The notes: generated by a model from the sequence alone, not told the origin. DNA of 64,000 nucleotides from a virus (IMGVR_UViG_3300031998_000037); one strand, 5' to 3'. Positions 1,947 through 54,706 are shown, counted from the stretch's first letter. Program-made: numbers and translations.

Positions 1947-1959
1947 GGAACTCAGTTCC
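1947..1959. promoter_or_regulatory. GGAACTCAGTTCC 13-bp palindromic intergenic motif (copy 1), followed by CCAAAAAAAAA and the RBS of the SPFH gene
   Basis: exact palindrome seen; recurs at 16058, 16972, 20740, 20776, 20812 (AGAAC variant) and 54694. Confidence 0.6.
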
Positions 1960-1984
1960 AATTCCAAAAAAAAAGGAGAATACA

Positions 1985-2920
1985 ATGGGATTTTTTTACA
2001 ACACAGAAAAGGAAACAGTTCGTGCAGGTCGTATTGTCGGCACAGTAATAGCAGGTGTTGCAGCATTTCTATTACTTACAGGTTCAATCACAAGAGTTCC
2101 CGTAGGCTCAGTAGGCGTACAGACTAACATGGCTAAGGTTACAGGTAACACATATAGTTCTGGTTGGTATTTCAAGATACCGTTTGCCGAGCACATGATA
2201 GATATGTCGATTCAGCAGCAGTCAATTGAATATCCTTCTATTCAGGGCGAACTCTCAGGCAAAGAGCTTATTAACATGACGCTTAAACTTACATATTCCC
2301 TTAATGGTGATAAGGCAGCAAGTGTTTATGAAAACTATGGTGAGAACTATATAACCACACTCATGCCGCAAGAAGAAGTGTTTGATGTTGTAAAGGGTAT
2401 TGTAGCAACATATGACATAGAAGATATCAGAACAAACCGTGCCGCTATAATGCAGCAAGCCGCTGACGGTTTACGCGAAAGATTTGGTTCAAGAGGTATC
2501 ACTATCACTTCACTGGCACTTGCAAATTATGATTTTGGTGATCTTGAAGCCTCTATTGATGCTGAGGTCAAGGCAAAGCAAGAACGCAAAACAGTTGCGG
2601 AACAGAATGAACTTGCAATTGAGGTAGCTGAAAACGCAAAGAAAGTCGCTGAAATTGAAGCTGAAAAAGCAGCGGAGGTCAAGCGTACACAAGCACAGGC
2701 TGATGCGGACGCGGCTAAAATCAAAGCCGAGGGTGAAGCTAATGCCATTAAGATAAGGGGAGAAGCTGAGGCTGAGGCAAATGAAAAGCTTGCAGCGTCT
2801 TTAACCCCTGAACTTATAAAGGCTAAAGAAATTGAACAATGGAACGGATCAAAGGCAACTGTAATTCTTGGTGAAAGCACACAACCTATAGTTCCTATTC
2901 CCGAAACAACACAAGAATAA
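1985..2920 (+). CDS. SPFH/band-7 (HflK/C, prohibitin-like) domain membrane protein
   Basis: N-terminal TM helix, SPFH-like core, then Ala/Glu/Lys-rich coiled coil; start moved to the ATG at 1985 after AGGAG, because the track start at 1931 would run through the palindromic motif. Confidence 0.6.
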   Translation: MGFFYNTEKETVRAGRIVGTVIAGVAAFLLLTGSITRVPVGSVGVQTNMAKVTGNTYSSGWYFKIPFAEHMIDMSIQQQSIEYPSIQGELSGKELINMTLKLTYSLNGDKAASVYENYGENYITTLMPQEEVFDVVKGIVATYDIEDIRTNRAAIMQQAADGLRERFGSRGITITSLALANYDFGDLEASIDAEVKAKQERKTVAEQNELAIEVAENAKKVAEIEAEKAAEVKRTQAQADADAAKIKAEGEANAIKIRGEAEAEANEKLAASLTPELIKAKEIEQWNGSKATVILGESTQPIVPIPETTQE

Positions 2921-2931
2921 AGGAGGACGTT

Positions 2932-3285
2932 ATGAGTAAGTTTATACGTACAGAAACTTATACATATCTGAATGAAGAATATTTTGAAAAGGGCGGCATC
3001 TATTATATCTACAACACTTTTGGCATGGAGTATATCGCTGTATGCACTGGCAAGAAGCCTGATGGTATACATCTTGTAAAAGTTTATAATTTGCCTATAG
3101 AGCAAAAGGACGAGACAGTTATTATACCAGACGATGAGATTATAATGAATGACAGCAATGTTTCATCATTTAAGACCTGTGAGAGAATTGAGCTTAAAGA
3201 AGATACCGACAAGTATGATCGCACAATTTCTTTCTTCTTTAAATTCTCTGCAAAGAAAGACGAGAAAAAGTCTGATGATGAATAA
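2932..3285 (+). CDS. hypothetical protein
   Basis: ORF with RBS AGGAGG. Confidence 0.35.
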   Translation: MSKFIRTETYTYLNEEYFEKGGIYYIYNTFGMEYIAVCTGKKPDGIHLVKVYNLPIEQKDETVIIPDDEIIMNDSNVSSFKTCERIELKEDTDKYDRTISFFFKFSAKKDEKKSDDE

Positions 3286-3884
3286 GAAAGATTGGACAGG
3301 CAATAAGACTTCTGTATTCTCTACATTAGCTGCAAGTAGTCATTCAAAAGATGATAGAGCAAATGACGACTATTATTGTACCCCCCCCCTATGCGGTTGA
3401 GGAACTTCTAAAACGTGAGACATTCAGCACTTATGTTTTAGAGCCTTCCGTTGGCGGAGGGCATATTGCAGAAGTCCTTGAAAGAAACGGTCATAAGATA
3501 CAAGCCTTTGATATTGTAGATCGTGGATATAACAAAACAGAAGTAAGGGACTTCTTAAATGTATCAAAAGAAGATGTCAAGTTTTCCCCTGATATCATCA
3601 CAAATCCTCCATATGCTTTGGCAAAAGAATTTGTTGAACACGCACTTGATATTTCTATGGACAGCACAAAGGTTGCAATGTTTCTTAAAATACAGTTCCT
3701 TGAAAGCAAGAAGCGGTATGAATTATTTAAGAAATATCCACCACGAAAAATATACGTGTTTGTTAACCGCGTTAATTGTGGTAAGAATGGTGTTTTTGGC
3801 AAAGAGTCAAGTGCTGTATGCTATGCATGGTTTGTATGGGTAAAGGGTTATAAAGGCTGTCCACAGGTAGATTGGATAGCATAA
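3275..3884 (+). CDS. phage Dam-family N6-adenine DNA methyltransferase, interrupted by a frameshift at a C9 tract (3381-3389); C8 would give the intact protein
   Basis: N-part 'DDYYCTPP' is in frame 2 and the C-part '...DIITNPPYALAKEF...' in frame 0, joined only across the poly-C; close paralog of the intact ORF 14571-15167. Confidence 0.7.
3381..3389. repeat. poly-C homopolymer (9 nt) inside a methyltransferase gene; candidate slipped-strand phase-variation tract
   Basis: seen in sequence; GC homopolymers this long are otherwise very rare in this AT-rich window. Confidence 0.8.
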
Positions 3885-3895
3885 GGAGATATAAG

Positions 3896-4318
3896 ATGAA
3901 AGTTTATAGAGTTGAAAACCCAAGTGAAGAACATGGACTTTGGCGCAACTTTGACGGTTCTCCATGTGATGTTTTTGAAAAACTTAAAGTTGGCAAATGT
4001 CGTGAAATGCCGATGCCCGATAATGATTTTTATAGGCGAGAGGGAAAGCGTTGGTTTTCCGCAACTGATGCTCCTGAAAAATTAAAGGCATGGTTTGATG
4101 TCTTTGACGTTATACAACTTTGTGAATTAGGGTATAAGGTTTATGAATTTGAGGTTGAATATGCTAAACCTGTAAATGAGTTTGAAGTTGTTTTCACGCG
4201 AGATTTAATTACTTCGTCAACTGCCATTGAACCATCTACTATTTGGAATGATTATGATACGGCAAAAAAATTTTTGACTTGTTGTTGCTGTGACTGTGAG
4301 GATTGTTATGCAAATTAA
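3896..4318 (+). CDS. hypothetical protein (C-terminal Cys cluster CCCCDCEDC)
   Basis: ORF; start placed at the ATG after AGGAG. Confidence 0.35.
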   Translation: MKVYRVENPSEEHGLWRNFDGSPCDVFEKLKVGKCREMPMPDNDFYRREGKRWFSATDAPEKLKAWFDVFDVIQLCELGYKVYEFEVEYAKPVNEFEVVFTRDLITSSTAIEPSTIWNDYDTAKKFLTCCCCDCEDCYAN

Positions 4319-5453
4319 TTGTGATAATGCTGCACAAAAGCCTTTAACCGAATCAGTAAAGCGAACCATAGTTAACTTTATTGATAATGAATTTGGCAAT
4401 CCTTCATCTATATATTCTAAAGGGCGCAACGCTAAACGTGCTCTTGAAGAAGCAAGAAGTCAGATTGCAGAATCAATAGGGGCTGACACAGACGAAATTT
4501 ATTTTACAAGTGGTAGCACCGAGGCAATCAACTGGCTTTATCATTCAACCAACAAACATATTCTGATTTCACCTATAGAGCACAAAGCTATTCTAAAAGG
4601 GAATGAAAATTATGATGGTATCTCTTACGGTTTGGACGTTAAACAAAATGGCGTTATAGATATTGAAAAACTTAAATATCTTTGTAATTGGGTACATGAC
4701 GATGGGGTTGCTATCATAGGTTGGGTAAATAATGAGATCGGTACAATTCAGCCTATAAAAGAAATAGCTAATATTTGCCACGCAAAAGGCGTTGAACTAT
4801 TCGTTGATGCTTCACAAGCTATCGGGCATATACCAATTAATGTGCATGAAATCGGGATGGATTATATGTGCGGTTCATTTCAGAAAATAGGCGGTTTGGC
4901 TGGTAGCGGTTTCCTTTATATAAAAAAAGGCAAAGGGTTCAATCCTATGTTATCTGGCGGATCACAAGAACGCGGCATGAGAGCTGGGACTGAAAACCTT
5001 TTAGGGGTAATGTGTGGTGCAACCGCGATATCCGAAGCAACTAAAAATCTAAGTGATAAAGTCTCCAGACAAAAAGAAATTCAAAGCAAAATTATCTCTG
5101 AACTTCTGAAACTCCCCAAAACACATTTGAATGGCGACTTATGTAATAGAGTTGCAAGCAATGTGAATATATGCTTTGAGGGTATTGAGGCTGAAAGTCT
5201 TGTGCTTCTGCTTGATTTAGATAATATTTGTGTTAGCAGTGGCTCTGCCTGTAACTCAGGTGATGTTAAGCCCAGCCATGTTTTGAAGGCGATAGGTCTT
5301 AGTGATGATAATGCTAAAGCAAGTATACGTATCACCTTTGATGACATGACGGATGATGAAATTGATTATCTTGTAGAGCGAATAAAGGCAAGAGTTAGTC
5401 AGTTAAGAGATATGTCCCCTAAATGGAAGGAGATATTCAATGCAAGTAATTGA
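4308..5453 (+). CDS. cysteine desulfurase (IscS/NifS family, class V aminotransferase)
   Basis: aligns along its whole length with IscS as recalled from memory: 'FTSGSTEAINW', 'NNEIGTIQPI', PLP lysine in 'SFQKIGG', 'SGGSQERGMRAGTEN', catalytic Cys in 'SSGSACNSGDVKPSHVLKAIGL', 'SIRITFDD..EIDYLVERI'. Confidence 0.8.
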   Translation: MQINCDNAAQKPLTESVKRTIVNFIDNEFGNPSSIYSKGRNAKRALEEARSQIAESIGADTDEIYFTSGSTEAINWLYHSTNKHILISPIEHKAILKGNENYDGISYGLDVKQNGVIDIEKLKYLCNWVHDDGVAIIGWVNNEIGTIQPIKEIANICHAKGVELFVDASQAIGHIPINVHEIGMDYMCGSFQKIGGLAGSGFLYIKKGKGFNPMLSGGSQERGMRAGTENLLGVMCGATAISEATKNLSDKVSRQKEIQSKIISELLKLPKTHLNGDLCNRVASNVNICFEGIEAESLVLLLDLDNICVSSGSACNSGDVKPSHVLKAIGLSDDNAKASIRITFDDMTDDEIDYLVERIKARVSQLRDMSPKWKEIFNASN

Positions 5454-5871
5454 AAATAAATATAACTCTGAGTCGCAAAAGGTAAAGTGTGAAGGATGCT
5501 CCAGCACATTTATAATTGATGAGTCAGATTTGAATATAGGCACATACGGCTGCAAGTTCTGGTCTTGTCCATATTGCGGTCAACAAAACTTGATTGACGA
5601 CAGTATTGAACTTACAGAAAGCAACTTTCAATTCCCTCAACACTTTGCAAGTTATAAAAATGGCAAACAGATAAGTAAAGATACTTTGCAAAAATGGGCG
5701 CAAGAAGCTTTATCCTTGCTTGACAAAGATCACAGTTTTGCTCTTCATGCCAGTGGTAATAGTCTTGTGTTTGCCTTTAAATCAGATTATGACGCACATG
5801 AGGCATCTGTGATAGTTTGTGATAACGGCTATTACGAAACCTATGTTAGTTTGCCAGAGGATAGGTTTTAA
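5440..5871 (+). CDS. hypothetical zinc-ribbon protein
   Basis: CEGC...CPYCG motif. Confidence 0.35.
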   Translation: MQVIENKYNSESQKVKCEGCSSTFIIDESDLNIGTYGCKFWSCPYCGQQNLIDDSIELTESNFQFPQHFASYKNGKQISKDTLQKWAQEALSLLDKDHSFALHASGNSLVFAFKSDYDAHEASVIVCDNGYYETYVSLPEDRF

Positions 5872-5971
5872 TACACAAATTCCAGTTTATAATATGGCAA
5901 ACGCCATGTTATATAGGCGTGTGATATTCACACAAAACACAATTTCCATAGAAAGGGTATGGTGATACACA

Positions 5972-6634
5972 ATGAAGAACTATTCTTCTAAAATCCGAAG
6001 TCTCCTCGCAAGAGGGACGAAAGCATTAGCATTAACATCTGTCTTACTCGCTACTGTAAGCTGCTCTCACGGTAAGACGGACACAGACACTTCCAGCAGC
6101 AGAAATGAGGTGACAACGACTTGTACAACTTCTACAACGACATCTACCTCTACAACATCAACAACGTCCTCTACGACAACAAGCACCGAGACAACGACGG
6201 CTGCGACGACGATGCCGACAACAACAATGATGACTGTGCAGGAGAATATTCAAGTGACTGAGTCTGTATATGTTGCTCCTGTTCAAGAGTATATTGAACC
6301 TGTGAACAGCAATCTTCCTATTACTGAGCGTGAAAGGGTTTTACTTTGTAATATTGTTGCAAATGAATATGGCTCAGACTGGGTAAGCGTCTATGACAAA
6401 GCTTGTGTTGTGGCAACTGTTATGAACCGTGTAAATAGCTCGCAATTCCCAAATGATATAGAAAGTGTCCTGACACAACCTCGTCAATTTACTGGCTATT
6501 GGGCAAGCGATAGTTATTATAGCACTGTTACAGACAGTTGCATAGAGGCAGTTGATTATTACTTTGCTCATCAAAATGAATTTGGTAATTACTTATATTT
6601 TGAAGGCGATGGGCGAGTGAATTATTTTCATTAA
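5972..6634 (+). CDS. secreted/lipoprotein cell-wall hydrolase (SleB/Hydrolase_2-like) with a Thr/Ser-rich linker
   Basis: signal peptide with a lipobox-like 'LATVSC', ~60-aa T/S low-complexity stretch, and C-terminal 'VVATVMNRVNSSQFPNDIESVLTQPRQFTGYW' that resembles the SleB family. Confidence 0.5.
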   Translation: MKNYSSKIRSLLARGTKALALTSVLLATVSCSHGKTDTDTSSSRNEVTTTCTTSTTTSTSTTSTTSSTTTSTETTTAATTMPTTTMMTVQENIQVTESVYVAPVQEYIEPVNSNLPITERERVLLCNIVANEYGSDWVSVYDKACVVATVMNRVNSSQFPNDIESVLTQPRQFTGYWASDSYYSTVTDSCIEAVDYYFAHQNEFGNYLYFEGDGRVNYFH

Positions 6635-6680
6635 ACAAAAATCCCCGACTTATGTCGGGGAGAAAGGAACACAAAGATGC

Positions 6681-6899
6681 ATGACAGCTAAACGAATGTA
6701 TTTATGGTCTGTGCATTACAGGGACGAAGTTGAACGCAGCATTGAATACTATAACTACATAAATTTGAAACAACCTGTATGGACAAGACCTTTAACAGAG
6801 ATAGAAAAGAAAGAGATTTTCGGTGGCAATCCGAATTACATAAAGAACATAGGCAGAAATGACGGACACGAATGGAGGCTATTGAATGATAATAATTGA
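6681..6899 (+). CDS. hypothetical small protein
   Basis: ORF. Confidence 0.3.
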   Translation: MTAKRMYLWSVHYRDEVERSIEYYNYINLKQPVWTRPLTEIEKKEIFGGNPNYIKNIGRNDGHEWRLLNDNN

Positions 6900-8104: not shown

Positions 8105-8107
8105 GAG

Positions 8108-8311: not shown

Positions 8312-8312
8312 C

Positions 8313-8513: not shown

Positions 8514-8517
8514 GACT

Positions 8518-10479
8518 ATGGCAAAAAAACAAACATCTACTATAAACGTTGGTATTACTTTAGATAAAGATTTTATTACCCAATACAATAAACTTCAAGC
8601 TGAGTACGGCACAGACATAGCAAGACTTAATGGCTTCGGTGACGATCAGCTTTCATATACAGATTTTATTGATAATTTTATTGATGATGATACAATTGCA
8701 GACGTAAGTATTGACGGCAATAGTAATGTCAGAAGAAAAGATATCGTGACACTGATAACAGAAATGCCAAAACCACACAGAAAGCTTCTTGCCTATAATA
8801 AGATTTACTATGAGTTCAAGAAAAAGTATGGCTTTAAGGCAGCAAATACGTGGCTTGAATATGAATGGTCTGGCAAGCTTTATCTCCATGACGCTGACAC
8901 TTCTTCTATGAAGCCTTACTGTTTTGCCTATGACCTTAAAGACCTTGCTGAAAGAGGGTTGTATTTCTTAGGCATAAACAATACTCAGCCAGCACAGCAC
9001 CTTACTACATTTGTTGATTTTGTAAAGGAGTTTATCTCTTTTGCAAGCAACAGAAGTAGCGGTGCGGTAGGCTTACCAAATATAATCCCGTATATGTTCT
9101 ATTATTGGCGCAAAGATGTCAAGTCTGATTATCTCGGAGTAAGAACAAGCGGCAATGAAAAGAAGTATGCTATTCAGAATTTCCAGAGATTTATCTACGC
9201 TGTCAATCAGCCGTGTGTACGTGATGGTCAGCAGTCAGCCTTTACCAATACAACTGTCTTTGATCGTCCTTACTTTGAAGCTCTTTTCGGCGGAACTGAG
9301 TTTCCTGACGGATCGTTTATGATTGATGCCGAAGAAGAAATAATTGAGTTTCAGAAATGGTATATGGAGACAATGGCTGAAATACGCAGCGAGAATATGT
9401 TTACATTCCCCGTATCAACTATTTCTCTTATTCGCAAGAACGGTAAGTTTGAGGATGAGGAATTTGCACATTGGGCAATTCGCCACAATATGAAGTGGTG
9501 CGATAGCAATATGTTTATTGACAAGGACGTAACTTCACTGTCAAATTGTTGTCGCCTTAAATCTCAGATTGATAACCTCGGCTACTTTAACAGTATCGGT
9601 GGAACAGCTTTAAAGGTTGGTTCAGTCAAAGTTGGCACAATCAATCTGGCTCGTATTGCACTTGATACTGAAAATGAAACTGAGTATCTTACAGAACTTA
9701 AAAAGCGTACCCTTATTGACTTAAAGGTACTTGATATAATCAGAGGCATTATAAAGAGAAATGTTGACAAGGGGCTTCTGCCTAACTTTACTTATGGGCT
9801 AATTGACTTTAAACATTTATATAATACAGTGGGCTTTACTGGTGTATATGAGAGCATGAAAAAGTTTGGCTATATCTCACGCGACTTATTCAATAATGTT
9901 TCCTATACAGAACAAGCCGAAAAGTTTGGTAAGAAGATATTCGATACCATACGCAAGACCGCCGATAAGTTCCTTGAAGATAACACTTGCGATTATCTTG
10001 TTTCACTTGAACAATCACCTGTAGAACAAGCGGCAAGCAAACTGATTCGTAAGGACAAGTTCTTCTATCCTGAGTCTGACATCTACGATTTGCCCGTATA
10101 TGGTAATCAGTTTATGCCACTCGGCATCAAGTCAATCTTACAAGAGAGAATAAGGGTTCAGGCTTTATTTGATGGTTTCTGTTCTGGCGGCAGCATACTT
10201 CATGCCAACATTGAAACGCCTTTTGACAGTTATGAAAAGGCATTGGCAATGACAGAGTATGTCGCAGATCAGGGGGTAACATACTTTGCATGGAACACAA
10301 AGATTTCTGCCTGTGAACATAATCACGCATTTCATGGCAAGATTTGCCCAAAGTGTGGTAAGCCTGTAAAAACAGAGTATACCCGTGTAGTCGGTTTTTA
10401 TACGCCGATTGAAAGCTGGTCAAGTGACCGTAAGGCGGAATATAAATTAAGACAATGGGAGGTAGTGAATGAAACTTAA
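8518..10479 (+). CDS. nrdD: anaerobic ribonucleoside-triphosphate reductase (class III RNR)
   Basis: 653 aa; C-terminal Zn-ribbon 'CPKCGKP' followed by the glycyl-radical motif 'TRVVGFYTP'. Confidence 0.75.
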   Translation: MAKKQTSTINVGITLDKDFITQYNKLQAEYGTDIARLNGFGDDQLSYTDFIDNFIDDDTIADVSIDGNSNVRRKDIVTLITEMPKPHRKLLAYNKIYYEFKKKYGFKAANTWLEYEWSGKLYLHDADTSSMKPYCFAYDLKDLAERGLYFLGINNTQPAQHLTTFVDFVKEFISFASNRSSGAVGLPNIIPYMFYYWRKDVKSDYLGVRTSGNEKKYAIQNFQRFIYAVNQPCVRDGQQSAFTNTTVFDRPYFEALFGGTEFPDGSFMIDAEEEIIEFQKWYMETMAEIRSENMFTFPVSTISLIRKNGKFEDEEFAHWAIRHNMKWCDSNMFIDKDVTSLSNCCRLKSQIDNLGYFNSIGGTALKVGSVKVGTINLARIALDTENETEYLTELKKRTLIDLKVLDIIRGIIKRNVDKGLLPNFTYGLIDFKHLYNTVGFTGVYESMKKFGYISRDLFNNVSYTEQAEKFGKKIFDTIRKTADKFLEDNTCDYLVSLEQSPVEQAASKLIRKDKFFYPESDIYDLPVYGNQFMPLGIKSILQERIRVQALFDGFCSGGSILHANIETPFDSYEKALAMTEYVADQGVTYFAWNTKISACEHNHAFHGKICPKCGKPVKTEYTRVVGFYTPIESWSSDRKAEYKLRQWEVVNET

Positions 10480-16045: not shown

Positions 16046-16057
16046 AATTTTGGTCTG

Positions 16058-16070
16058 GGAACTCAGTTCC
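16058..16070. promoter_or_regulatory. GGAACTCAGTTCC palindromic motif (copy 2), between dut and the HNH gene
   Basis: exact match, followed by TTTTCCAAAAAAA. Confidence 0.6.
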
Positions 16071-16111
16071 TTTTCCAAAAAAATGATATAGGAGGGATAT
16101 GTAAAAACAAA

Positions 16112-16699: not shown

Positions 16700-16971
16700 A
16701 GTTTCGCAAAAGGTTCTCCAAATTTCCTCAAATATGAATTTGGTGCAACTTTGGTGCAACTCTTGACAAACCGCTTTCCCCGTACTATAATATACATAAG
16801 GTCACAGGTTTGTCGGACTTCTGTGACTGTCAAGCCACTTGCAAATGTAGTAACCAACTGCGTTTGCATAAAGGAACCCCAAGAGATCACGGCTCTTGGG
16901 GTTTTATCTATAACTCATAATAATACAAAAGTCAACTAATTTATTAGCCATAGCTTTCATTTTTTTGGCTT

Positions 16972-16984
16972 AGGAACTCAGTTC
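16972..16984. promoter_or_regulatory. GGAACTCAGTTCC palindromic motif (copy 3), at the convergent junction between the + module and rep
   Basis: exact match, flanked by TTTTTTT and AATTCAAAAATTTT. Confidence 0.6.
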
Positions 16985-16988
16985 CAAT

Positions 16989-18062
16989 TCAAAAATTTTC
17001 TCTTTGTTTATCACGTTCAGCCTTTAACATAGCCCTAAAATAACTGTAACGGTTAGCGATATTTTGCTGTTCAGATATAGCATTAAAGTGAGTATATTGT
17101 TCCTGTAAATAATGATACCTTGCAAACCCAATGCCAAGAGGATGTTCAGGCATATCCGTAGAAAATACAATTGCAAGCAGACTTTCCATTTCTTTTACTG
17201 AAAATTCATTATTACAAGCACCTGAGAAAAAGTCAAGTTCAACATCTTGTGTCTCTATTTCTTCTTTAATCTTGTCAACATCAATTAAATCTGAAAATCC
17301 CTCAAAGATAGGAATTTGTTTTTGAGCTGGTTCATTTTTAGTGATAGTAAACACAATAGATATCCACCTACCACCTGCACCTGTCTTGCCGCGCTCATAG
17401 GTATAGCTAATGTCTGTAAGTTCCTTTAAAGCCTTTTGACAGCTATCGAGTACATACTTTTTAAATAAAGACCAACCATTTTTATTTGAATATTCAGTTT
17501 CGGCAATACCGAGCAATTCTCTAAGTTCTTTTACAGGTATCTCTCTCTTCCCTATATTCTCGTATTGTTTTAAAATTTCATACATTCTAATTTGATTTGC
17601 TGATTTAAGGATCAGTGCATTCCAAAGTTCGTACTTAAAATATCTCTCTTTAAAATCAAACATTAAAGGCAATGCTTTATCGTGGGCATCTATCTGAACA
17701 TACCATTCGCCGTCCTCATTCTTATCAACTTCACATTCTTTAAAAAGCTGAAATCCAGAATATCCGCCACTCTCTTTTGGTATATTGACAACCTTACAAA
17801 GTAAGCTATTAGTGCTTGATTTAAGTTGCTGAATATTCATTCTACTAAACCCCATGATCTTCTGGAAGTCAGACAGTGGGAATCGAACAATTCTTGTTGA
17901 CTCATCTCTGGGGTTTATCTTAGATAGATAAATCGAAAAAAAGCGTAACTCTTGTAAGGATAGATTATTGGCTCTAATCTCGTTAAGGATATTTCTTTTT
18001 TCTACTATAGCTCCCTCATAAATAGTAGACATATATATCACCTCAATATTATTATAACACAC
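16989..18062 (-). CDS. rep: plasmid-type replication initiator (RepA_N-like)
   Basis: 357 aa whose N-terminal region resembles Firmicute theta-plasmid RepA_N; iterons lie immediately upstream. Confidence 0.6.
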   Translation of the reverse strand: MCYNNIEVIYMSTIYEGAIVEKRNILNEIRANNLSLQELRFFSIYLSKINPRDESTRIVRFPLSDFQKIMGFSRMNIQQLKSSTNSLLCKVVNIPKESGGYSGFQLFKECEVDKNEDGEWYVQIDAHDKALPLMFDFKERYFKYELWNALILKSANQIRMYEILKQYENIGKREIPVKELRELLGIAETEYSNKNGWSLFKKYVLDSCQKALKELTDISYTYERGKTGAGGRWISIVFTITKNEPAQKQIPIFEGFSDLIDVDKIKEEIETQDVELDFFSGACNNEFSVKEMESLLAIVFSTDMPEHPLGIGFARYHYLQEQYTHFNAISEQQNIANRYSYFRAMLKAERDKQRENF

Positions 18063-18063
18063 A

Positions 18064-18215
18064 TTCTATAGATTGTCAATGCTATCTATAGTATTATGCA
18101 ATGAAATCTATAGAATCGTGCAATACAATCTATAGTATCTTGCAATGAAATCTATAGAATTGTGCAATACAATCTATAGAATTGTGCAATACAATCTATA
18201 GAATCGATTCCGCAA
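18064..18215. repeat. iteron array: ~7 tandem 22-bp repeats (consensus AATCTATAGAATYGTGCAATAC)
   Basis: counted by eye at 22-bp periodicity, directly upstream of rep; 2 further copies at 18411-18448. Confidence 0.8.
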
Positions 18216-18410
18216 AGGTGCTATTTTAGGTCGTTTACGATAACCGAAAATATATATAAAATAAATAAAATACTTCTAAAACATCTTTCAAACTATCATG
18301 GAGCAAAAACTGATATTAATTTAAGACTTAAAGAAATAAAATTGGCAAAACAACCAAAACATAAATATAAAATTCATTATCAAACGAATTATAAAGTACA
18401 ATTCAATCAT
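18216..18410. other. AT-rich spacer between iteron groups (putative DNA unwinding element/origin)
   Basis: extreme AT content between the two iteron sets. Confidence 0.5.
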
Positions 18411-18448
18411 CTATAGAATTGTGCAATCAAATCTATAGAATTGAAAAT
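18411..18448. repeat. two additional iterons (ATCTATAGAATTG...)
   Basis: same repeat family as 18064-18215. Confidence 0.7.
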
Positions 18449-18652
18449 TAATGTCCGTAATTTAGAAAATCAATGTCCGTAATTAAAACTTTATGTTAAA
18501 ATTAAATGGCATTATTTGATGACTAAATTTGTCTTTTGCAGATAAATGTCCTATTTTATTATACGCAAAATAGGCAAGAAAAACACTTTGCAGAAATCTG
18601 TCCTATTTAGAAAATCAATGTCCGTAATTAAGAAAATTTATGTCCGTAATTA
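18447..18652. repeat. parS-like repeats: 4 copies of ATGTCCGTAATTA plus 2 degenerate TGTCCTATTT copies, downstream of parB
   Basis: copies at 18447, 18469, 18617 and 18639; the pairs are spaced 22 bp apart. Confidence 0.6.
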
Positions 18653-18664
18653 ATCTTGTTTAAC

Positions 18665-19867
18665 TTACGAGCAATGATTATTCCTATAACTATCCATCAA
18701 TTCCTGAATAGTTTTAAGTTCCTCAGCAGGGTTCATATCCAGCAATCTTTTGATTGCGGTATCAACGGCTTGAACTTCCTTGATAATCTTTTTGCTTTGA
18801 GCGATCTTGCCAGACTTATCCTTCTGAGCATCGTCAAGTCCCTTTTCGGCAGAGAAGATAGTATTCGTAAATATCTTCTTTACCTCACTATTTTGCTTTT
18901 GAGTTTTGAGATCAATGTCGCGGTCAAGCTGTTCAAGAGCTGCATTGTACTTAGCAACACTCTTTTCAATACTTGCCTTACGGGATTCAAGCTCAGGCGA
19001 TTGTTCTATATCAAGCTCCTTGTTGATATTTGCAAGCTCCTCATTTGCTTGTAAAAGCCTTCCATTATAATACATACGCGAGGTTTTATCTTTTGAAAGA
19101 GAAGTGTTTGTCTTTGAAATAATATTCTTAGCCTGTTTTGCAAAAGCGAGTGTGTGCTCGATAGCATATTTCTTAGTCTCAGGATCAGCGTTGTCCGCAG
19201 CCTTTAGAATATCATTGGCATAGTTCTGATATTCTTCTGGGAGCTGCGCAAGTGAAGCAGCCGTGTTGATATCAATAGCATCCGCATAGAGCAATTCCTT
19301 TAAAGGATTGATAAGCTCAGACGTAATGGCGATAAGCTTATTAGCCTGACGTTCACTGACATTAAAAGCCTGTGAAACATACTCTTTAAATTTTTGAGCC
19401 GCCTCTCGTTCAGCGGTTTCATCAAACTGCTTTATCTTAGCGAGAAAGCCTTCAATGATTTGAACCTTTTCTTCAATGCTATATTCTCTTGTTTCACTAT
19501 TGGCAAAGAAAAGCATTTTGAGAATTTCGAGCTGAGAAAGATTGCTTCTTACAGTCGCCTTAATCTTATCGCGTCCGAGGTACTTGACAGCCTTTGTGCG
19601 GCGTTCTCCAGATATGAGCAAGTATTTCGTAGGCTCTATCTTTGCAACCACAATATTATGCAGCAAGCCGTTCTCTTTGATATTCTCAGCAAGTTCTGCA
19701 ATGCCCTCGTCAGAGTCGCCCATATTGAAAATGTTATCCTGATTAAAAACGATTTGATCTATGGGGATAATATCAGTTGTCTCGATAGACTCCTGTTCCT
19801 TTTTGACGCTATCAGCAAGCTCATTAAAGCGGCTCAACGCCTTGTCGGTGTTTAACTTCTTAGCCAT
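18665..19867 (-). CDS. parB: ParB-family partition protein
   Basis: N-terminal ParB/Srx-like box ending in 'GERRTKA'; long helical C-terminus; translationally coupled to parA. Confidence 0.7.
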   Translation of the reverse strand: MAKKLNTDKALSRFNELADSVKKEQESIETTDIIPIDQIVFNQDNIFNMGDSDEGIAELAENIKENGLLHNIVVAKIEPTKYLLISGERRTKAVKYLGRDKIKATVRSNLSQLEILKMLFFANSETREYSIEEKVQIIEGFLAKIKQFDETAEREAAQKFKEYVSQAFNVSERQANKLIAITSELINPLKELLYADAIDINTAASLAQLPEEYQNYANDILKAADNADPETKKYAIEHTLAFAKQAKNIISKTNTSLSKDKTSRMYYNGRLLQANEELANINKELDIEQSPELESRKASIEKSVAKYNAALEQLDRDIDLKTQKQNSEVKKIFTNTIFSAEKGLDDAQKDKSGKIAQSKKIIKEVQAVDTAIKRLLDMNPAEELKTIQELMDSYRNNHCS

Positions 19868-20664
19868 TAATTAACGCCCCCTAAAATGATATTTTCAAGC
19901 TCCTCAGCGACAGCCAGATAATCAGCCGTGACTTTTTCATTCTTGGCATAATTTATCAATGGGTTGTGATCCGTAAGGCTCTTCTCTACAATGGTCGTCT
20001 TTCTGATCTCGGTATTAAAGAAATGGTATGATGTAAGATTAGCCTTGAATTGTTCAAGGTAAAAGTTCTGAGCTGCCGTGTTCTCCTTCTTTGTAAAAAG
20101 CAGCCCAGCGATTTTGAGATTTGGGTTGACATATTGCTGAATGTTTGTGATAAATTCATTCATGGCGAAGATACTGTCAATGCCGTACTCAGTCGCCTCG
20201 CAAGGCAGCACGGTATAGTTACTTGCTGTGAGGGCGTTTGTGGTTAAATTATTACGTGCAGGTGGGCAGTCGATAAAAACATATTCATATTCATCCTGTA
20301 TCTCTGTAAGCTTATTCTTTAAAATAAACTCTCTTGCTATTGGCAAAGCTGATAATTCAGTATCAGCCTTATCCAGATTGACGTTAGACGGCAGCAAATC
20401 AAGCCCGTCAATGTCAGTACCTATGGTAGCTTTACGGACGCTTAAATCGCCACATATGACATTGTAGACGCTTACCTCGTCTTTGCTGAGAAACTTTCCG
20501 AGGTAAGTTGTGGCATTTGCTTGCGGATCAAGGTCAACAAGTAGCACCTTTTTGTTTTTAATTTTAGCAAATATTGCAGCAAGGTTTACACTCGCCGTGG
20601 TTTTGCCAGCACCACCTTTACGGTTCAATAAAGAAATCGTAATCATTAATTTTGCTCCTTTCAC
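19867..20664 (-). CDS. parA: ParA/Soj-family partition ATPase
   Basis: deviant Walker A 'NRKGGAGKTT', 'VLLVDLDPQ'. Confidence 0.85.
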   Translation of the reverse strand: MKGAKLMITISLLNRKGGAGKTTASVNLAAIFAKIKNKKVLLVDLDPQANATTYLGKFLSKDEVSVYNVICGDLSVRKATIGTDIDGLDLLPSNVNLDKADTELSALPIAREFILKNKLTEIQDEYEYVFIDCPPARNNLTTNALTASNYTVLPCEATEYGIDSIFAMNEFITNIQQYVNPNLKIAGLLFTKKENTAAQNFYLEQFKANLTSYHFFNTEIRKTTIVEKSLTDHNPLINYAKNEKVTADYLAVAEELENIILGGVN

Positions 20665-20739
20665 TGTTTGAGTGTTTGACTGTTTGCTTCTTTCATTATA
20701 TCACACTTTATTTTAAAATGCAAGAGTTTTTTTGAAAAA

Positions 20740-20824
20740 GGAACTCAGTTCCTAAGCCAAAATTTTTTTGAAAAAGGAACTCAGTTCCCAGAGCAAAATT
20801 TTTTTGAGAAAAGAACTCAGTTCC
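20740..20824. promoter_or_regulatory. three tandem copies of the palindromic motif (GGAACTCAGTTCC x2, AGAACTCAGTTCC x1), each between T- and A-runs; upstream of parAB and downstream of the lysis genes
   Basis: copies at 20740, 20776 and 20812, ~36 bp apart. Confidence 0.65.
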
Positions 20825-20880
20825 TAAGCCAAAAAAATAGGGTACAGCAAGTCCATAATAAGACCTGTTGTACCCTAAGT

Positions 20881-45414: not shown

Positions 45415-45416
45415 GA

Positions 45417-48851: not shown

Positions 48852-48886
48852 TTGCCTTACCTCCTTTCTTATGATTTCTCAAAAAC

Positions 48887-49093: not shown

Positions 49094-49094
49094 C

Positions 49095-50621: not shown

Positions 50622-52470
50622 AACGTTTGGCTGGTCGAGCCATAAATAGTGTTGTTATATCCTGAACAGGCTGTTGTTTAACAACACTGCCTCTTCTTAA
50701 TTCATATAACCTATGTGCTAAAAGTATCAACACATAAAATCTATCATCGTGCATACGTGTTTCTTTTTCCTTAGATAGAGCATAATTTACAGTTGTCTTT
50801 TCAGCGTTTTGTGTTTTATGAATTGATGTTACTTCTGTTTTCATTAGGTCAATTTGAACTAATGCCATTTTTTCATCATCCGATAGCTCATGGTTTTCCC
50901 ATGTCTCATTACCATCTTTATCAACGCCAGTTATAACCTTTAATGAATCTTGCCCTGAGTATTCATAAGGGAATCTGATTACACCCAAATCCATTAACTC
51001 AATCATTTCTTCAACCATTTGAGTTCTGTATTTCTTTGGGCTAATAACTCTTAATTTATCACAAGCATTAGGGTAACGGTTGACAAAGCTTTGATACAAC
51101 TCATTGGTCTTATCAATAAAGCCTCGATGCTTCTTTCCAAATTTATCTGTATAATCATTCAGCAAGCCGTCAGCATATGTACTTACGCCGCCGCCAGCCG
51201 CACCAGCATCAACATTCAAAACATCTATATATTCATAATCTGGGTTTTGACCGTTATAGCATATTATCAATTTGCGCAGCTCTTCTAATTGCCTATTGGA
51301 GTCCAGCTTGTATTTTTGCTTTGTGAAAGTATCTACCATATTAACGCAATTTATTATATCTCCGCACCATCCAAGCTCTTTATCCTTATATATATTCATA
51401 ACACCCACAATTGAATTATCGTTTGTTCGCGCTGGATCAAACGCCAAAGCTATTCTGCTATTGGGCTGCCATTTAAGTGTAGGCAAATAGAACTTTTCAT
51501 TTCTGCGAATTACGTCCCACTTTATTATCTGACTACTTCCGCCGTCAGCAGTAGGCTGGTTGAAATACTCTCTAAGGGCTTTTTCTTTATTGCTCTTCAA
51601 AGCTGTCTCAACCTTGCTTCTTGTAAGCAGAGGAATATATGGCTCACCATTCATGTATGTCTGAATTGCAACATCGCATATCATATCACATACAAAATAG
51701 TCCCTATCTCCAGCAAGCATTCTCTTAGCATAATATTTGTAATGCTTATAGAATGTCTTATCCATCTGATCTTGCGATGATGCATATACCAGTTGTGTAG
51801 GTACTCTTCTCTTTTCAGTCTCAGGGTTAAAGTCATCTTCGGTAGAAGTTATAAAGTCTGTATTTTGCATAGCAAATGCTTCACAAACACTTATAAGCTC
51901 GTCAGAACAGAATGCGGCTTCATCAAAGAAAACAAGAGTTGCACGGCGGCTTCTTGCGGAGTCTGGTTTACTGTTCAGGGTATGAATTGTACTGCCATTA
52001 TAAAACTCTACTGAATAACCTGCTGGGTTGTGGCTAAAGCCTGTTTTATTCGTTGCAGATTTTGTTGTTTCCTTTTCAACAATATCCTTTAATGAACGAA
52101 TAGAGGCAGCCGTCTTTCCCATGCGTGTAACAATTTCTTCTATCTTTGTAAAGGTTTCCTTAGACTGATCTCCGACAGACGATATGATATATATAGCCTG
52201 ATTTTCATAAAGGACTGCTTTGAGTATCATAAATATTGCGCCCAAAAATGATTTACCAAAGTTACGACTACAGCACCATACACTATGTTGGGCATTCCAT
52301 GTACTTTGCAATATCCATTTCTGCGCATCAATCAAACGAATGCCGAGTAAGTCCTCACACGCAATACAAGGATTTCGCCTATAAAAAGCTATAGACTCAG
52401 CATCTAATTCATATATTCTTTTTTTTATCGGTGTGAGAATGATTTTACGCCTCTTCATCACTATCACCAT
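50614..52470 (-). CDS. terL: terminase large subunit
   Basis: 618 aa; Walker-B-like 'TLVFFDEAAF'; position in front of the portal. Confidence 0.65.
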   Translation of the reverse strand: MVIVMKRRKIILTPIKKRIYELDAESIAFYRRNPCIACEDLLGIRLIDAQKWILQSTWNAQHSVWCCSRNFGKSFLGAIFMILKAVLYENQAIYIISSVGDQSKETFTKIEEIVTRMGKTAASIRSLKDIVEKETTKSATNKTGFSHNPAGYSVEFYNGSTIHTLNSKPDSARSRRATLVFFDEAAFCSDELISVCEAFAMQNTDFITSTEDDFNPETEKRRVPTQLVYASSQDQMDKTFYKHYKYYAKRMLAGDRDYFVCDMICDVAIQTYMNGEPYIPLLTRSKVETALKSNKEKALREYFNQPTADGGSSQIIKWDVIRRNEKFYLPTLKWQPNSRIALAFDPARTNDNSIVGVMNIYKDKELGWCGDIINCVNMVDTFTKQKYKLDSNRQLEELRKLIICYNGQNPDYEYIDVLNVDAGAAGGGVSTYADGLLNDYTDKFGKKHRGFIDKTNELYQSFVNRYPNACDKLRVISPKKYRTQMVEEMIELMDLGVIRFPYEYSGQDSLKVITGVDKDGNETWENHELSDDEKMALVQIDLMKTEVTSIHKTQNAEKTTVNYALSKEKETRMHDDRFYVLILLAHRLYELRRGSVVKQQPVQDITTLFMARPAKRYD

Positions 52471-53572
52471 TCTTTAATTTTTGAATTTCCAAAAGCAGTT
52501 GCCTTTTTTCCTCTTGTAAATCATCTACCTTTTCCTGAAGTTTAGTAACCATTTCTCTTTTTATTCCATCAATTTCACGCAAGTCATTTTCATCAAAGAA
52601 TGTATTTTTCTGTATTGCATTCATTGATACTTCTGCCGCCCATCTTGTGCCAGCAGATTTAAGTTGATCGTAATAATCTGCCTCAGCTCTATCAAAATTC
52701 TTCTCGCGCAGATTTCGCATGAGATAAGTAAGAGTTGATTTGCCAGCATCTTTATTTGACCTGTTCTTTACAGATATCTCATTTTCCTTTGCAATCTTAT
52801 CATTTGACATAACAAGCCTGCTTTTTAATTCATTAAGGGCTTGGATATCTTTGCTATCACTTAAAGGTTTAAGTTGTGCAATCAGCAAGTCATACTGTCT
52901 GATCTGATTATTATTATTTACTATCTGAATTATCTGAGACATCTTATAGTTATCTTCTACGACCTCATCATCATCAAGATACTTAACAAGCTCGCTAAAC
53001 AGATAACGCCTGTCCGACGATTGATAACCTGCAAACGGATCATAGCCTATAACCTCAATTACTGTTTGCATATTATTCTGTTCTTCCTCAGTCCAGTTTG
53101 CCTCAAACATTTCGTCAGTTTCTTGCTTTGACCTCAAAAACTTTTCATTATTAATTGACGACATAATATAGTCAACAAAAGTTTTATTTTTGTTTTGCGA
53201 TAGGTTAAGCCGCTTTATATATTCCCCAAGTCGTATATCCTCACGGCTTTTCTCTTTCATTTGCAGATATGTTTTTTCTGAGAAGAACCAACCCATTTCA
53301 CAACAAGTTACCAATAAAGCAACTTCTTCGTCCTGATATTTCTCTTTCATTCTGCCAAAGAAATCATCACAGCAGCAAGCACATATTGTACTGTAATTTT
53401 CATTTCCATTATATAGTGCATTCTGTGCAACCTTGAAAAACTTGCCTTCAGGATCTTGGACAAGCTTGCCGCAGCAAGAGCACTTATATAATGGCGGCAA
53501 TGTCTCCAAATCTACCTTTGCATATTTAGGCTGCTTTTTTCTTGTTGAAGTTTGTTTTGTACTTCTTGCCAA
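52445..53572 (-). CDS. putative terminase small subunit/DNA-binding protein with zinc ribbon and C-terminal coiled coil
   Basis: position upstream of terL; 'CSCCGK...' motif; larger than a typical TerS. Confidence 0.3.
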   Translation of the reverse strand: MARSTKQTSTRKKQPKYAKVDLETLPPLYKCSCCGKLVQDPEGKFFKVAQNALYNGNENYSTICACCCDDFFGRMKEKYQDEEVALLVTCCEMGWFFSEKTYLQMKEKSREDIRLGEYIKRLNLSQNKNKTFVDYIMSSINNEKFLRSKQETDEMFEANWTEEEQNNMQTVIEVIGYDPFAGYQSSDRRYLFSELVKYLDDDEVVEDNYKMSQIIQIVNNNNQIRQYDLLIAQLKPLSDSKDIQALNELKSRLVMSNDKIAKENEISVKNRSNKDAGKSTLTYLMRNLREKNFDRAEADYYDQLKSAGTRWAAEVSMNAIQKNTFFDENDLREIDGIKREMVTKLQEKVDDLQEEKRQLLLEIQKLKNGDSDEEA

Positions 53573-54534
53573 ACTGAACTCACTCCTTTAACTCGATCAC
53601 GCAATAAATTTAAAAAATCCACAAAAGTTATATTAGGAATATAAGAAAAATCTTTCATTATACGACAATAGATTGTGGTAATTAAATCATCTGAAACATT
53701 TTGAACAAACGGTTCGCAGTAATTCCAGTATTGTTTACATACTTGCAGATAGTCATTTTTGTTCTCAGGGCAATCGTCAAGCACTATATTAAAGTATTGA
53801 TAAATAACCACAAGATTTTGTAATGCACGAAAAGTAATTTTATCACCTGACATATTTCTGGCAAGACATTCTTCTAAATAATACATTATTGCAAGAACGT
53901 ATGTTCGCTTATTTTCGTATAATGATTGATGCGTCACAGACTTAGGATTGTCCCTCCACATTAATGTTGTTATCGGTTCTTCAATTATCTTAGCCCCTAA
54001 ATCAATAAGAATTTGATGGAACTTAACATCTTCATTAATGCGCAATCTTTCATCAAAATATAGGTTGTTGTCCAACAAATATTGACGTTTATAAACTCGA
54101 CCATGACACCATGTAGGTGATTTACTAATCTTTCTAATCGCAATACCATTAGGCTGTCTTATCTCACTTTCAAATCCGCTGACAAGCATATCCGCATCTT
54201 CTAACTTAATTCGATTGTACAATATCTCTAATGCAAGACAATTTGTAAAACAATCATCAGCATCCAAAAACATTATATAATCAGATGTAGAGTTTTTAAT
54301 TCCTGTATTCCTTGAAGCACCGCAGCCACCATTTTTATCTCGCACTATATATTTAATGTGCAGTTCACCAAAACTTGCCGTGTCAATAATAGCATCATAA
54401 TTTATACCATCACAATCATTAACAATTATGACCTCTATCTCGTTAGAAATACTTTGCATTGCGATTGAATGAAGTGACTTTGCAATAGTGTCTTTAGCTT
54501 TATAGCAAGGTATTACAACACTTAATTTATACAT
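53512..54534 (-). CDS. family 2 glycosyltransferase
   Basis: 'LSVVIPCYKA', 'IIVNDCDG', DxD 'FLDADD'. Confidence 0.7.
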   Translation of the reverse strand: MYKLSVVIPCYKAKDTIAKSLHSIAMQSISNEIEVIIVNDCDGINYDAIIDTASFGELHIKYIVRDKNGGCGASRNTGIKNSTSDYIMFLDADDCFTNCLALEILYNRIKLEDADMLVSGFESEIRQPNGIAIRKISKSPTWCHGRVYKRQYLLDNNLYFDERLRINEDVKFHQILIDLGAKIIEEPITTLMWRDNPKSVTHQSLYENKRTYVLAIMYYLEECLARNMSGDKITFRALQNLVVIYQYFNIVLDDCPENKNDYLQVCKQYWNYCEPFVQNVSDDLITTIYCRIMKDFSYIPNITFVDFLNLLRDRVKGVSSVWQEVQNKLQQEKSSLNMQR

Positions 54535-54596
54535 AATATCAATCCTTTAATTCAAAATGGTGCAGCCCTTGTCTCGTGCAACTCAGGCTACATAAT

Positions 54597-54616
54597 GGGG
54601 GAGTGCGACACTCCCC
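54597..54616. other. GC-rich hairpin GGGGAGTG-CGAC-CACTCCCC upstream of the late operon
   Basis: perfect 8-bp stem, seen in sequence. Confidence 0.5.
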
Positions 54617-54693
54617 AGTAGGAGGAAATAAAAAAGTAAATGTGCAGAGTTTAAGGGAAGTTTATTAATTCCATCCCTTAAAATTTTGCGAAA

Positions 54694-54706
54694 GGAACTG
54701 AGTTCC
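54694..54706. promoter_or_regulatory. GGAACTGAGTTCC palindromic motif (reverse-orientation copy) followed by AATTCAAAAAAAA, upstream of the GT2-terminase operon
   Basis: exact reverse complement of the other copies. Confidence 0.6.

Follow-up and report, generated by a model that had tools for sequence, protein, structure and literature searches.

We found that a 13-bp palindrome, GGAACTSAGTTCC, is most likely the core of parS, the predicted binding site of this element's own ParB partition protein. The window, that is, the whole 64-kb stretch of DNA that was analysed from an element of about 100 kb, combines phage genes (terminase, portal, tape measure) with a plasmid module in which ParA and a CTPase-type ParB accompany Rep3 and iterons. 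The element is a rumen/gut phage-plasmid, a tailed phage probably kept as a low-copy plasmid, since it has a parA-parB operon as well as iterons and a Rep3 initiator. The palindrome most likely represents a new example of a well-known plasmid-segregation system and not a new kind of phage signal.

The window carries seven sites, six exact copies and one variant, where essentially none would be expected by chance (100 dinucleotide-preserving shuffles of the window sequence gave an expectation of zero exact core copies). The exact core, GGAACTCAGTTCC, lies on the + strand at 1947, 16058, 16973, 20740 and 20776 and on the - strand at 54694, and the variant AGAACTCAGTTCC is present at 20812. An earlier sequence-only reading had located all of these copies, one of them a base away (16972 for 16973), and had put the total at eight or more, which for the window comes down to seven. 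The other near-match, at 9292 (GAAACTCAGTTCC), was rejected as an eighth site: it falls within the nrdD coding sequence and is devoid of T/A flanks. We regard it as a coding coincidence, since the same coding stretch is conserved in a relative, L102, whose true sites have the core TGCACT. A scan with a degenerate 33-bp profile, TT-N8-NGNACTSAGTNCN-N8-AA, built from 45 sites of the family, returned the same seven places in the window and nothing else. All seven are intergenic and flanked by T-runs and A-runs, as had been noted before. The flanks are symmetric: each core, a 13-bp palindrome of 6-1-6 format, sits centrally in a symmetric site of about 33 bp, TTTTG-N5-core-N5-CAAAA.

The genes surrounding the sites are likewise those named by the earlier reading. 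Site 1 (1937-1969, core 1947-1959; no strand is assigned to any of the sites) falls within the 77 bp that separate a 68-aa ORF from the SPFH gene (ATG 1985). Site 2 (16048-16080, core 16058-16070) follows the dut stop (16045) and precedes the HNH start (16112), a position kept in ten related loci, each with its own genome's core. Both lie inside operons, 25-41 bp upstream of start codons. Site 3 (16963-16995, core 16973-16985) directly follows the stop codon of rep on the 3' side, where rep and HNH converge, and a site just 3' of rep is also present in L005, L009, L012, L013 and L102. Sites 4 (20730-20762, core 20740-20752), 5 (20766-20798, core 20776-20788) and 6 (20802-20834, core AGAACTCAGTTCC at 20812-20824) form an array with a period of 36 bp between the lysis and parAB operons. 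Site 4 is the promoter-proximal copy, with its centre about 58 bp upstream of where parA transcription is inferred to start; site 5 is the middle copy, and site 6, the distal one, abuts the T-run of the lysis-operon terminator. Site 7 (54684-54716, core 54694-54706, with G as the central base on the + strand) is found between the terminator of a tRNA/6A-RNA cluster (54712-54742) and the GT2-terminase operon (GT2 ATG 54534).

The proposed reader of the palindrome is the product of parB (18665-19867, - strand, 400 aa), a predicted CTPase-type ParB. This gene adjoins parA (19867-20646, - strand, ATG 20646), which encodes a small Walker-type ATPase of 259 aa, in a single operon that is kept in the 11 relatives with gene tables. 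ParA matches Pfam AAA_31/CbiA and ParB matches ParB_N, their PHROG families being ParA-like and ParB-like; ParA consists of the ATPase domain alone, with no N-terminal HTH domain. The parA promoter (20695-20723, - strand), read directly from the sequence, is of sigma-70 type, with a -35 element TTGCAT (20718-20723) and, after a 17-bp spacer, an extended -10, TGTGATATAAT, whose hexamer lies at 20695-20700. It is conserved in all relatives examined, and a consensus promoter scan missed it because the -35 rule of that scan demands four of six matches. The intrinsic terminator of the lysis operon (20831-20877, - strand; -23.9 kcal/mol, z = -5.8) is immediately upstream of the triple array, which is thus placed between this terminator and the parA promoter.

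Two further copies flank the origin. The replicon bracketed by sites comprises rep (16989-18032, - strand), encoding a Rep3 initiator of 347 aa, and an origin region (18055-18653, no strand assigned) with eight 22-bp TCTATAGA-type iterons at 18055-18227 and 18402-18440 and a second family of 22-bp repeats, of ATTACGGAC type, at 18443-18653. The 22-bp repeats beside parB were considered as a rival centromere and rejected: they track the rep lineages and are absent from the locus L103, which identifies them as iterons and not as parS. The origin has five of the seven sites within 2.7 kb: the three upstream of parA, the one that follows rep and the one between dut and HNH. The previous proposal that the palindrome marks module boundaries fits the position of the sites around the par-ori-rep module, which they bracket, as a description and not as a demonstrated function.

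ParB is of the CTPase type, as predicted from its N-terminal CTP-binding fold with a GERR arginine box. Its ParB_N domain contains this box and N123/R127, and the residues S86-G87-E88-R89-R90 and N123/R127 are invariant across 52 homologues. Its closest relatives of known structure, by sequence as well as by fold, are Noc, Spo0J/ParB and KorB. In the AlphaFold model (mean pLDDT 85, rising to 93-96 in the HTH region), about 220 residues superpose on the ParB-parS structure 6T1F (TM 0.71) and on the KorB-DNA structure 8QA9 (TM ~0.6). The predicted HTH consists of a helix (160-167), a turn (168-171) and a recognition helix (172-184), and the model ends in a long helical C-terminal region of about 190 residues.

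We compared the window with 14 related loci (12 distinct elements), for which about 10 kb to either side was covered. They retain the palindrome in its 6-1-6 format, together with its flanks and positions, and the core differs between genomes (GGAACT, TGAACT, AGAACT, TGCACT, TGTACT and TGTCTT across the family). Within one genome, all copies share one core, save for occasional single-base variants in one arm. These concerted changes covary with ParB. Ser171 pairs with A and Asn171 with C/T at position 3 of the half-site in 15 of 15 loci, and residue 171 is the sole column among 318 variable ParB columns that splits cleanly, with one residue per position-3 class. Position 1 tracks residue 176 (N versus H/Y/L/S), the only one of the 318 columns with a single residue in the position-1 purine class. 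Both residues map to the predicted recognition helix or its N-cap, with 171 at the helix start. A ParB tree built without the HTH region (by neighbour-joining, without support values) mixes both site types, so that at least three independent switches are needed. Furthermore, core predictions made before DNA retrieval were correct in four of four cases (P0022, P0032, P0075 and P0119). In L103, where parAB is found in a non-phage neighbourhood, we observed a perfect site with the ParB-predicted core and the same flanks.

Considering these findings, we propose that a ParB dimer reads each ~33-bp site through its helix-turn-helix: residue 171, which caps the recognition helix at its N-terminus, would read position 3 of the half-site, and residue 176 would read position 1. 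By analogy with CTPase-type ParBs, the bound dimer would close as a CTP clamp and spread to adjacent DNA, building a partition complex, and ParA would move such complexes apart at cell division. The complex would form around the origin, given that most sites cluster there. The three array copies, located at roughly -58, -94 and -130 of the parA promoter, probably also confer ParB-dependent autoregulation, since the small ParA itself lacks a DNA-binding domain; the dispersed parS sites would then probably act as parAB operator as well.

Some observations were counted against parS. A pure centromere has no obvious need for the placement of the copies at 1947 and 16058 so close to start codons, and in L103 the site is not found ahead of parA but 1.9 kb downstream of parB. 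Beside the 13-mers, several relatives carry a parS-like sequence of host-chromosome type, TGTTTCATGTGAAAC, so that ParB-type sites of more than one kind can share this region. The same 13-mer core is also present, in tandem pairs, in unrelated fragments of aquatic phages in which no ParAB was seen.

The palindrome could instead be the operator of a separate dimeric transcription factor of the phage (a lysogeny repressor, for example, or a late activator) that controls several operons without ParB. We consider this unlikely. A symmetric, intergenic 13-bp site preceding the SPFH, HNH, parA and GT2-terminase genes would suit such a factor, and its gene, if located elsewhere on the ~100-kb elements (about 35 kb lie outside the window), could covary with the core too. 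However, no recognisable core promoter overlaps any of the seven sites, one of them is 3' of rep at a convergent junction, and the parA array is upstream of the -35 element, an unusual place for repressor action. Moreover, parAB are the only shared genes in L103, whose core is still the one predicted from ParB, and both the recognition-helix covariation and the four correct predictions would have to be due to coincidence or linkage. Of the three options of the sequence-only reading, the operator of a dimeric regulator comes nearest, as the site has the appearance of a target for a dimeric HTH protein, but the regulator, which that reading left unnamed, would be ParB, and the evidence from sequence comparison points to a centromere (parS) first and an operator only secondarily.

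The arrangement of the sites, which bracket parA-parB-ori-rep and still end this block in the rearranged neighbourhood of L013, would also fit a part of the replication system, namely an operator for a Rep dimer, or a recombination site that exchanges the par-ori-rep module, and Rep lineages have indeed been swapped between otherwise syntenic elements. Nevertheless, we hold this to be very improbable. The half-site has no similarity to either family of origin repeats, and the core does not follow Rep: L012 and L014 have Reps that are 17% identical and yet share TGAACT sites, whereas the cores of L015 and L106 differ despite Reps that are 92% identical. A Rep3 iteron or Rep operator was rejected on both grounds. 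The cores of L102 and L014 also differ although their ParAs are 92.6% identical, and we exclude Rep and ParA as linked specificity determinants because neither lineage tracks the core. In addition, no rep is found in the 17 kb covered for L103, which still carries the site, no recombinase is consistently nearby, and a triple tandem array upstream of a promoter would be unexpected for a crossover site.

It is similarly doubtful in the extreme that the motif acts as an RNA hairpin, be it a factor-dependent terminator or an anti-terminator target, as had been suggested before, or a processing site. Each copy can form a stem of 5-6 bp with a 3-nt loop and a weak outer stem of the T/A flanks, the copy at 16058 outfolds 200 of 200 shuffles (z = -3.3), and in some relatives a longer inverted repeat surrounds the copy after rep. 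On the other hand, the folds reach only -7 to -12 kcal/mol, compared with about -24 kcal/mol for the real terminators of this genome, and five of seven have z values between -1.2 and -1.9, mostly within the range of the shuffles. Without a stable GC-rich stem, and with 9-10 nt between the stem and any T-run instead of a U-tract directly after it, an intrinsic (Rho-independent) terminator was rejected. A terminator scan flagged the 1947 copy on the minus strand, but this is the non-coding strand, and it found none at the parA and rep/HNH copies. The parA array, situated between a terminator and the next promoter, is probably little transcribed. Finally, the exact sequence and not merely its pairing is identical at all copies of a genome, the arm mismatches that occur in relatives would often not allow wobble pairing, and the most conserved flanks (TT/AA at +/-15-16) are outside any stable stem.

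Least probable is the phage-specific promoter element, for a phage sigma factor or RNA polymerase, that the earlier reading had also offered: the motif is conserved and repeated and precedes several operons, among them the late GT2-terminase operon with no obvious sigma-70 promoter (the scan found none of sigma-70 type at 1947, 16058 or 54694), but it is symmetric with C or G as its central base whatever the gene direction, one copy, 3' of rep, has no downstream gene either way within its intergenic gap, the start codons are just 25-41 bp away at 1947 and 16058, the array is upstream of an ordinary sigma-70-type promoter, and changes in specificity follow ParB.

As a set of probable parS sites, the palindromes have their closest known analogues in RK2 KorB/OB and in N15. 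In RK2 (IncP-1), the CTPase KorB, a member of the ParB family, has the small ParA IncC as its partner, and OB has a 13-bp palindromic 6-1-6 core, TTTAGCGGCTAAA; its twelve copies are dispersed, either adjacent to promoters or far from them, and serve both partition and transcriptional control (PMC11790492, PMC3597684). The core format and the dispersal are the same here, and our ParB model superposes on KorB-DNA structures. However, the site sequence is unrelated, ParB is nearer to Noc and Spo0J by sequence and fold, OB measures 16 bp against ~33 bp for the site described here with its conserved outer TT/AA, only the parA site has a recognisable target promoter, and the replicon is that of a phage in a Gram-positive anaerobe host.

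N15 is a temperate linear phage maintained as a plasmid, and its ParB-type protein reportedly binds short inverted repeats scattered round the genome (Ravin & Lane 1999 and Grigoriev & Lobocka 2001, as cited in PMC5016525, which describes SopC/OB-type sites as "scattered across the genome"). It is likewise a phage-plasmid with dispersed ParB-type sites instead of one centromere locus, but it has no tandem array at its parA promoter, and its proteins and sites are not detectably related to ours beyond the family fold. The type Ia Sop/Par systems (F, P1, N15) have a large ParA of about 390 aa whose N-terminal HTH autoregulates the operon, unlike the ParA of 259 aa found here. In F, sopC consists of 12 tandem 43-bp repeats, each with a 16-bp inverted repeat (PMC3597684). 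Such tandem single-site repeats resemble the three 36-bp repeats upstream of parA, although sopC is a single locus downstream of sopB and not in a promoter. SopB also requires contact outside its HTH, a possible parallel to the conserved outer flanks of our sites.

The nearest solved relatives, chromosomal ParB (Spo0J)-parS and Noc-NBS of Firmicutes, have palindromic sites clustered round the origin. Chromosomal parS differs in being a 16-bp 8+8 palindrome, TGTTNCACGTGAAACA, of which there is no copy in the window, and chromosomal ParB has a short canonical dimerisation domain in place of the long helical C-terminal region seen here. The specificity of ParB and Noc is set by four interface residues (PMC7383237), and this control by few residues parallels the S171/N176 covariation that we observed.

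We found that the 13-bp palindrome GGAACTCAGTTCC occurs six times exactly in the 64-kb window, at 1947, 16058, 16973, 20740 and 20776 on the plus strand and at 54694 on the minus strand, against none expected from dinucleotide-preserving shuffles. The sequence-only reading had already located these exact copies, placing one of them a base too early (16972 instead of 16973), and its estimate of at least eight copies has to be lowered to seven. A degenerate 33-bp profile built from 45 family sites indeed has exactly seven matches in the window, i.e. the six exact copies and the variant at 20812 (AGAACTCAGTTCC). When one mismatch is allowed in the 13-mer, the extra matches are 20812 and 9292; the latter lies inside nrdD without the flanks, in a coding sequence also kept in the relative locus L102, whose true core differs, and it was therefore rejected as a member. 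The symmetry of the sites, flanks included, reaches far past 13 bp (TTTTG-N5-core-N5-CAAAA). The seven sites are distributed over five loci and, as previously noticed, all of them are intergenic. Judging from sequence, the best-supported reading is that these sites are the parS of the ParB encoded by the same element.

Composition and ORFs place genes on the plus strand up to ~16.9 kb and on the minus strand after it. Profile searches identified SPFH, dUTPase, HNH, a Rep3 initiator, ParB (ParB_N), a small ParA, an XhlA-like lysis protein and a GT2 glycosyltransferase as neighbours of the sites, and a large terminase, a portal and a 2007-aa tape measure elsewhere in the window. The rep-parB gap holds eight 22-bp iterons of the TCTATAGA type and a second 22-bp repeat family. 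Considering the phage genes together with Rep3, its iterons and parAB, we conclude that the element is a phage-plasmid, a tailed phage that also carries a theta-type plasmid replicon and a partition operon. A megablast of 10 kb returned no close DNA relative in phage or plasmid collections, and no ParB relative above 30% identity was found in IMG/VR. Gut and rumen metagenomes yielded more than 200 ParB homologues; their contigs measure ~60-150 kb, and a few carry the label Ruminococcus sp. or Eubacteriales. A metagenome scan with the ParB alignment returned mostly a distant clade (~30% identity), and a comparable recurrent perfect palindrome was absent from ten of its loci.

Within 18055-18653, the TCTATAGA iterons adjoin rep and ATTACGGAC repeats are also present, the latter being the rep-adjacent iterons in L009, L012 and L013. 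Rep and its iterons are exchanged among otherwise syntenic elements (parB-rep gaps of L009, L012, L013, L014, L015 and L106), and the two Rep clades share just 16-20% identity. In L005, a near-identical element with a 100% identical ParB, the gap is 22 bp shorter than in the window (L005 11203-11814 vs window 18055-18227), which corresponds to one iteron copy and indicates that iteron number varies among strains.

As relatives we took the loci surrounding ParB homologues of 55-100% identity, and compared them within ~10 kb of parB. Those in a phage context share the order lysin, terminator, sites, promoter, parA, parB, iterons, rep and then convergent HNH and dut, the exceptions to synteny being L013, which is rearranged locally, and L103, whose context is not that of a phage. 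Upstream of the parA promoter, all relatives but L103 carry 6-1-6 13-bp palindromes that share the T-run/A-run flanks, and in most of them further copies lie in the HNH-dut gap, immediately 3' of rep, or at both places; L103 has one site, 1.9 kb downstream of parB. The core varies between genomes and is uniform inside a genome, save for occasional single-base variants in one arm. The half-site is GGAACT in the window and L005, TGAACT in L009, L012, L014, L019 and L020, AGAACT in L013 and L016, TGTACT in L010, TGCACT in L017, L102, L103 and L106, and GGCACT in L101; GGAACT and TGAACT are mixed in L007, and L015 has TGTCTT and TGACTT. In the 45-site profile, G(-5) never varies, A(-3), C(-2), T(-1) and the central S hardly do, the variable positions are -6 and -4, and the TT at -16/-15 is as conserved as the core (97-99%). 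Since all copies in a genome change in concert, a single sequence-specific reader encoded by the element is implied.

Several observations point to ParB as this reader. The protein contains the GERR box, and the solved structures most closely related to it are those of Noc, Spo0J/ParB and KorB. The sequence alignment to solved ParB structures covers the N-terminal domain only, and the HTH was mapped instead by an AlphaFold model (mean pLDDT 85), which puts the turn at 168-171, between a helix at 160-167 and the recognition helix at 172-184; ParB-parS and KorB-DNA structures can be superposed on this model. Across 15 loci, an A at half-site position 3 always goes with Ser at residue 171, and a C or T with Asn, whereas residue 176 is Asn with a purine at half-site position 1 and H, Y, L or S with T. 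Among ~318 variable ParB columns no others are clean in this way, the rest of those with non-overlapping residue sets mixing several residues per class. On a ParB tree without support values, from which the HTH region was left out, the two site types are intermingled, implying at least three independent switches. Moreover, once the first eight pairs were known, the core class of four further ParBs was predicted from the HTH alone, correctly in every case: the turn is IN in P0022 (observed core GGCACT) and in P0032 and P0075 (both TGCACT), and VN in P0119 (TGCACT), the last assigning the switch to residue 171 and not to residue 170. In HTH proteins, helix positions 1-2 and 6 usually contact bases, which fits with residues 171 and 176, and we infer from the protein-only model that these two residues would do so in ParB.

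A first test for disjoint residue sets had returned many Rep columns, owing to the hypervariability of Rep and to n = 10, and the Rep tree and pairwise identities settled the point: L012 and L014 both have TGAACT with Reps 17% identical, and L015 and L106 differ in core with Reps 92% identical. ParA gave no clean column in the same test, and L102 and L014 differ in core with ParA 92.6% identical. In L103, the neighbours of parAB are HD-GYP, GGDEF and RtcB genes; the 17 kb examined contain neither rep nor phage genes, and tttttttgaattTGCACTCAGTGCAaatccaaaaa is still present.

Canonical ParB proteins have a short C-terminal dimerisation domain. In the model of this ParB, residues ~229-400 fold instead into a pair of very long helices (229-287 and 291-349) and then two shorter ones, which looks like a distinct ParB subfamily architecture.

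Regarding their surroundings, the 1947 site is 25 bp upstream of the SPFH start codon, the 16058 site has the dut stop on one side and the HNH start on the other, the 16973 site begins four bases past the rep stop codon, and the 54694 site comes after a cluster (three tRNAs and a 6A RNA) and its terminator. No recognisable sigma-70 promoter stands beside the 1947, 16058 or 54694 copies. The triple array (20740, 20776 and 20812; 36-bp period) lies between the intrinsic terminator of the lysis operon (-23.9 kcal/mol, z = -5.8) and the parA promoter, TTGCAT-N17-TGTGATATAAT, which is kept in all relatives and was missed by the consensus promoter scan owing to its -35 rule. The array sites are centred at ~-58, -94 and -130 relative to the inferred parA transcription start.

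Other features were observed in these intergenic regions. The three tRNA genes (54850-54921, 55289-55359 and 55420-55492, minus strand) occupy an 840-bp "gap" upstream of the 54694 site, together with the Rfam 6A RNA match (55186-55236, minus strand), and a terminator at 54712-54742 closes the cluster. The GT2-terminase leader (54534-54690, minus strand) contains two hairpins, AAGGGA...TCCCTT and GGGGAGTG-TCG-CACTCCCC, and no recognisable sigma-70 promoter; the late promoter may be non-standard, or the leader structured. Between HNH and the post-rep palindrome, 16740-16912 (plus strand) looks like a small RNA gene, with two direct repeats (TTTGGTGCAAC) before a perfect sigma-70 consensus promoter (TTGACA-17-TATAAT, 16763-16791) and a strong hairpin with a T-run (CCCCAAGAG...CTCTTGGGGTTTT) ~110 nt downstream; it has no Rfam match at the gathering threshold.

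We propose that a ParB dimer would bind each ~33-bp site via its HTH and, by analogy with CTPase-type ParB proteins, close as a clamp and then spread.PMC11790492,PMC7383237 A partition complex would thereby be built around the origin, five of the seven sites being at most 2.7 kb from the iterons, and ParA would carry out segregation. With a small ParA that lacks an HTH, autoregulation is probably exerted by ParB via the promoter-adjacent array. The conserved outer TT/AA may represent a second contact outside the HTH, like that of SopB R219,PMC3597684 or a DNA-shape requirement.

It is possible, if rather unlikely, that ParB is KorB-like and acts as a CTP-dependent sliding clamp from dispersed sites, serving both partition and the silencing or gating of phage operons in the plasmid-prophage state; candidate targets would be the site ahead of the late GT2-terminase operon and those immediately preceding the SPFH and HNH starts. 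If so, plasmid maintenance would be coupled to the lysis-lysogeny programme in a Gram-positive phage.

The folding of the motif as RNA speaks against a terminator role, as it is weak (-7 to -12 kcal/mol), within the shuffle range for five of the seven motif folds and without a U-tract adjoining the stem. As for the 22-bp repeats beside parB, a rival centromere, they follow rep lineages and are missing in L103, and we therefore consider them iterons. Chromosomal parS was rejected as the identity of the sites, since no canonical copy is present in the 64-kb window.

Several relatives, unlike the window, do contain a near-consensus host-chromosome-type parS, TGTT(T/C)CA(T/C)(G/A)TGAAAC (L007 ~9085, L009 ~9093, L012 ~7198, L014 ~7950, L019/L020 ~5093, L102 ~7908), located next to the 13-bp palindromes that precede parA or in between them. 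This parS might serve as a second centromere or bring in the Spo0J/SMC machinery of the host. Also upstream of parA, L013 (8466-9100) and L016 (~4400-5100) have ~650 bp of GC-rich, apparently non-coding sequence, perhaps a degraded gene or a structured RNA. Four small genes, one encoding a 153-aa HTH_3 (XRE-type) protein, separate parA from parB in L014 and L102 (8864-9999 in both).

In IMG/VR motif scans, the 13-mer core was shared only by an element of aquatic phages, with different, symmetric flanks (TAAAYM...KRTTTA). Six fragments (L001-L004, L104 and L105; GC 42-46%) carry the GGAACTSAGTTCC core as tandem pairs 34-57 bp apart, ending ~20 nt upstream of a structural-module gene in four of them. 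Neither ParA nor ParB was detected in these fragments and the aquatic element has no similarity to the window; the common core is probably a convergence.

If the sites are parS, a function can be given to the most prominent repeat of a so far uncharacterised phage-plasmid family (~100 kb; rumen and gut Clostridia), and its centromere is defined together with a likely basis of incompatibility between members. ParABS is an already known kind of system and no new kind of mechanism is revealed; the site family was previously undescribed, and its ParB/parS pairs, matched in specificity over six half-site variants, form an unusually clear natural series. The resulting simple rule, in which Ser171 goes with A and Asn171 with C/T at position 3, and Asn176 with a purine at position 1, could serve orthogonal DNA-labelling tools or studies on the evolution of ParB specificity.

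Among known systems, type Ia Sop/Par was rejected because ParA is small here, and a KorB orthologue because Noc and Spo0J are nearer to this ParB. The closest system in biology is N15, a phage-plasmid whose centromere repeats are scattered.PMC5016525 and references therein The closest in working principle is KorB/OB of RK2, with a 13-bp palindromic core, twelve dispersed sites and both partition and regulatory roles.PMC11790492,PMC3597684
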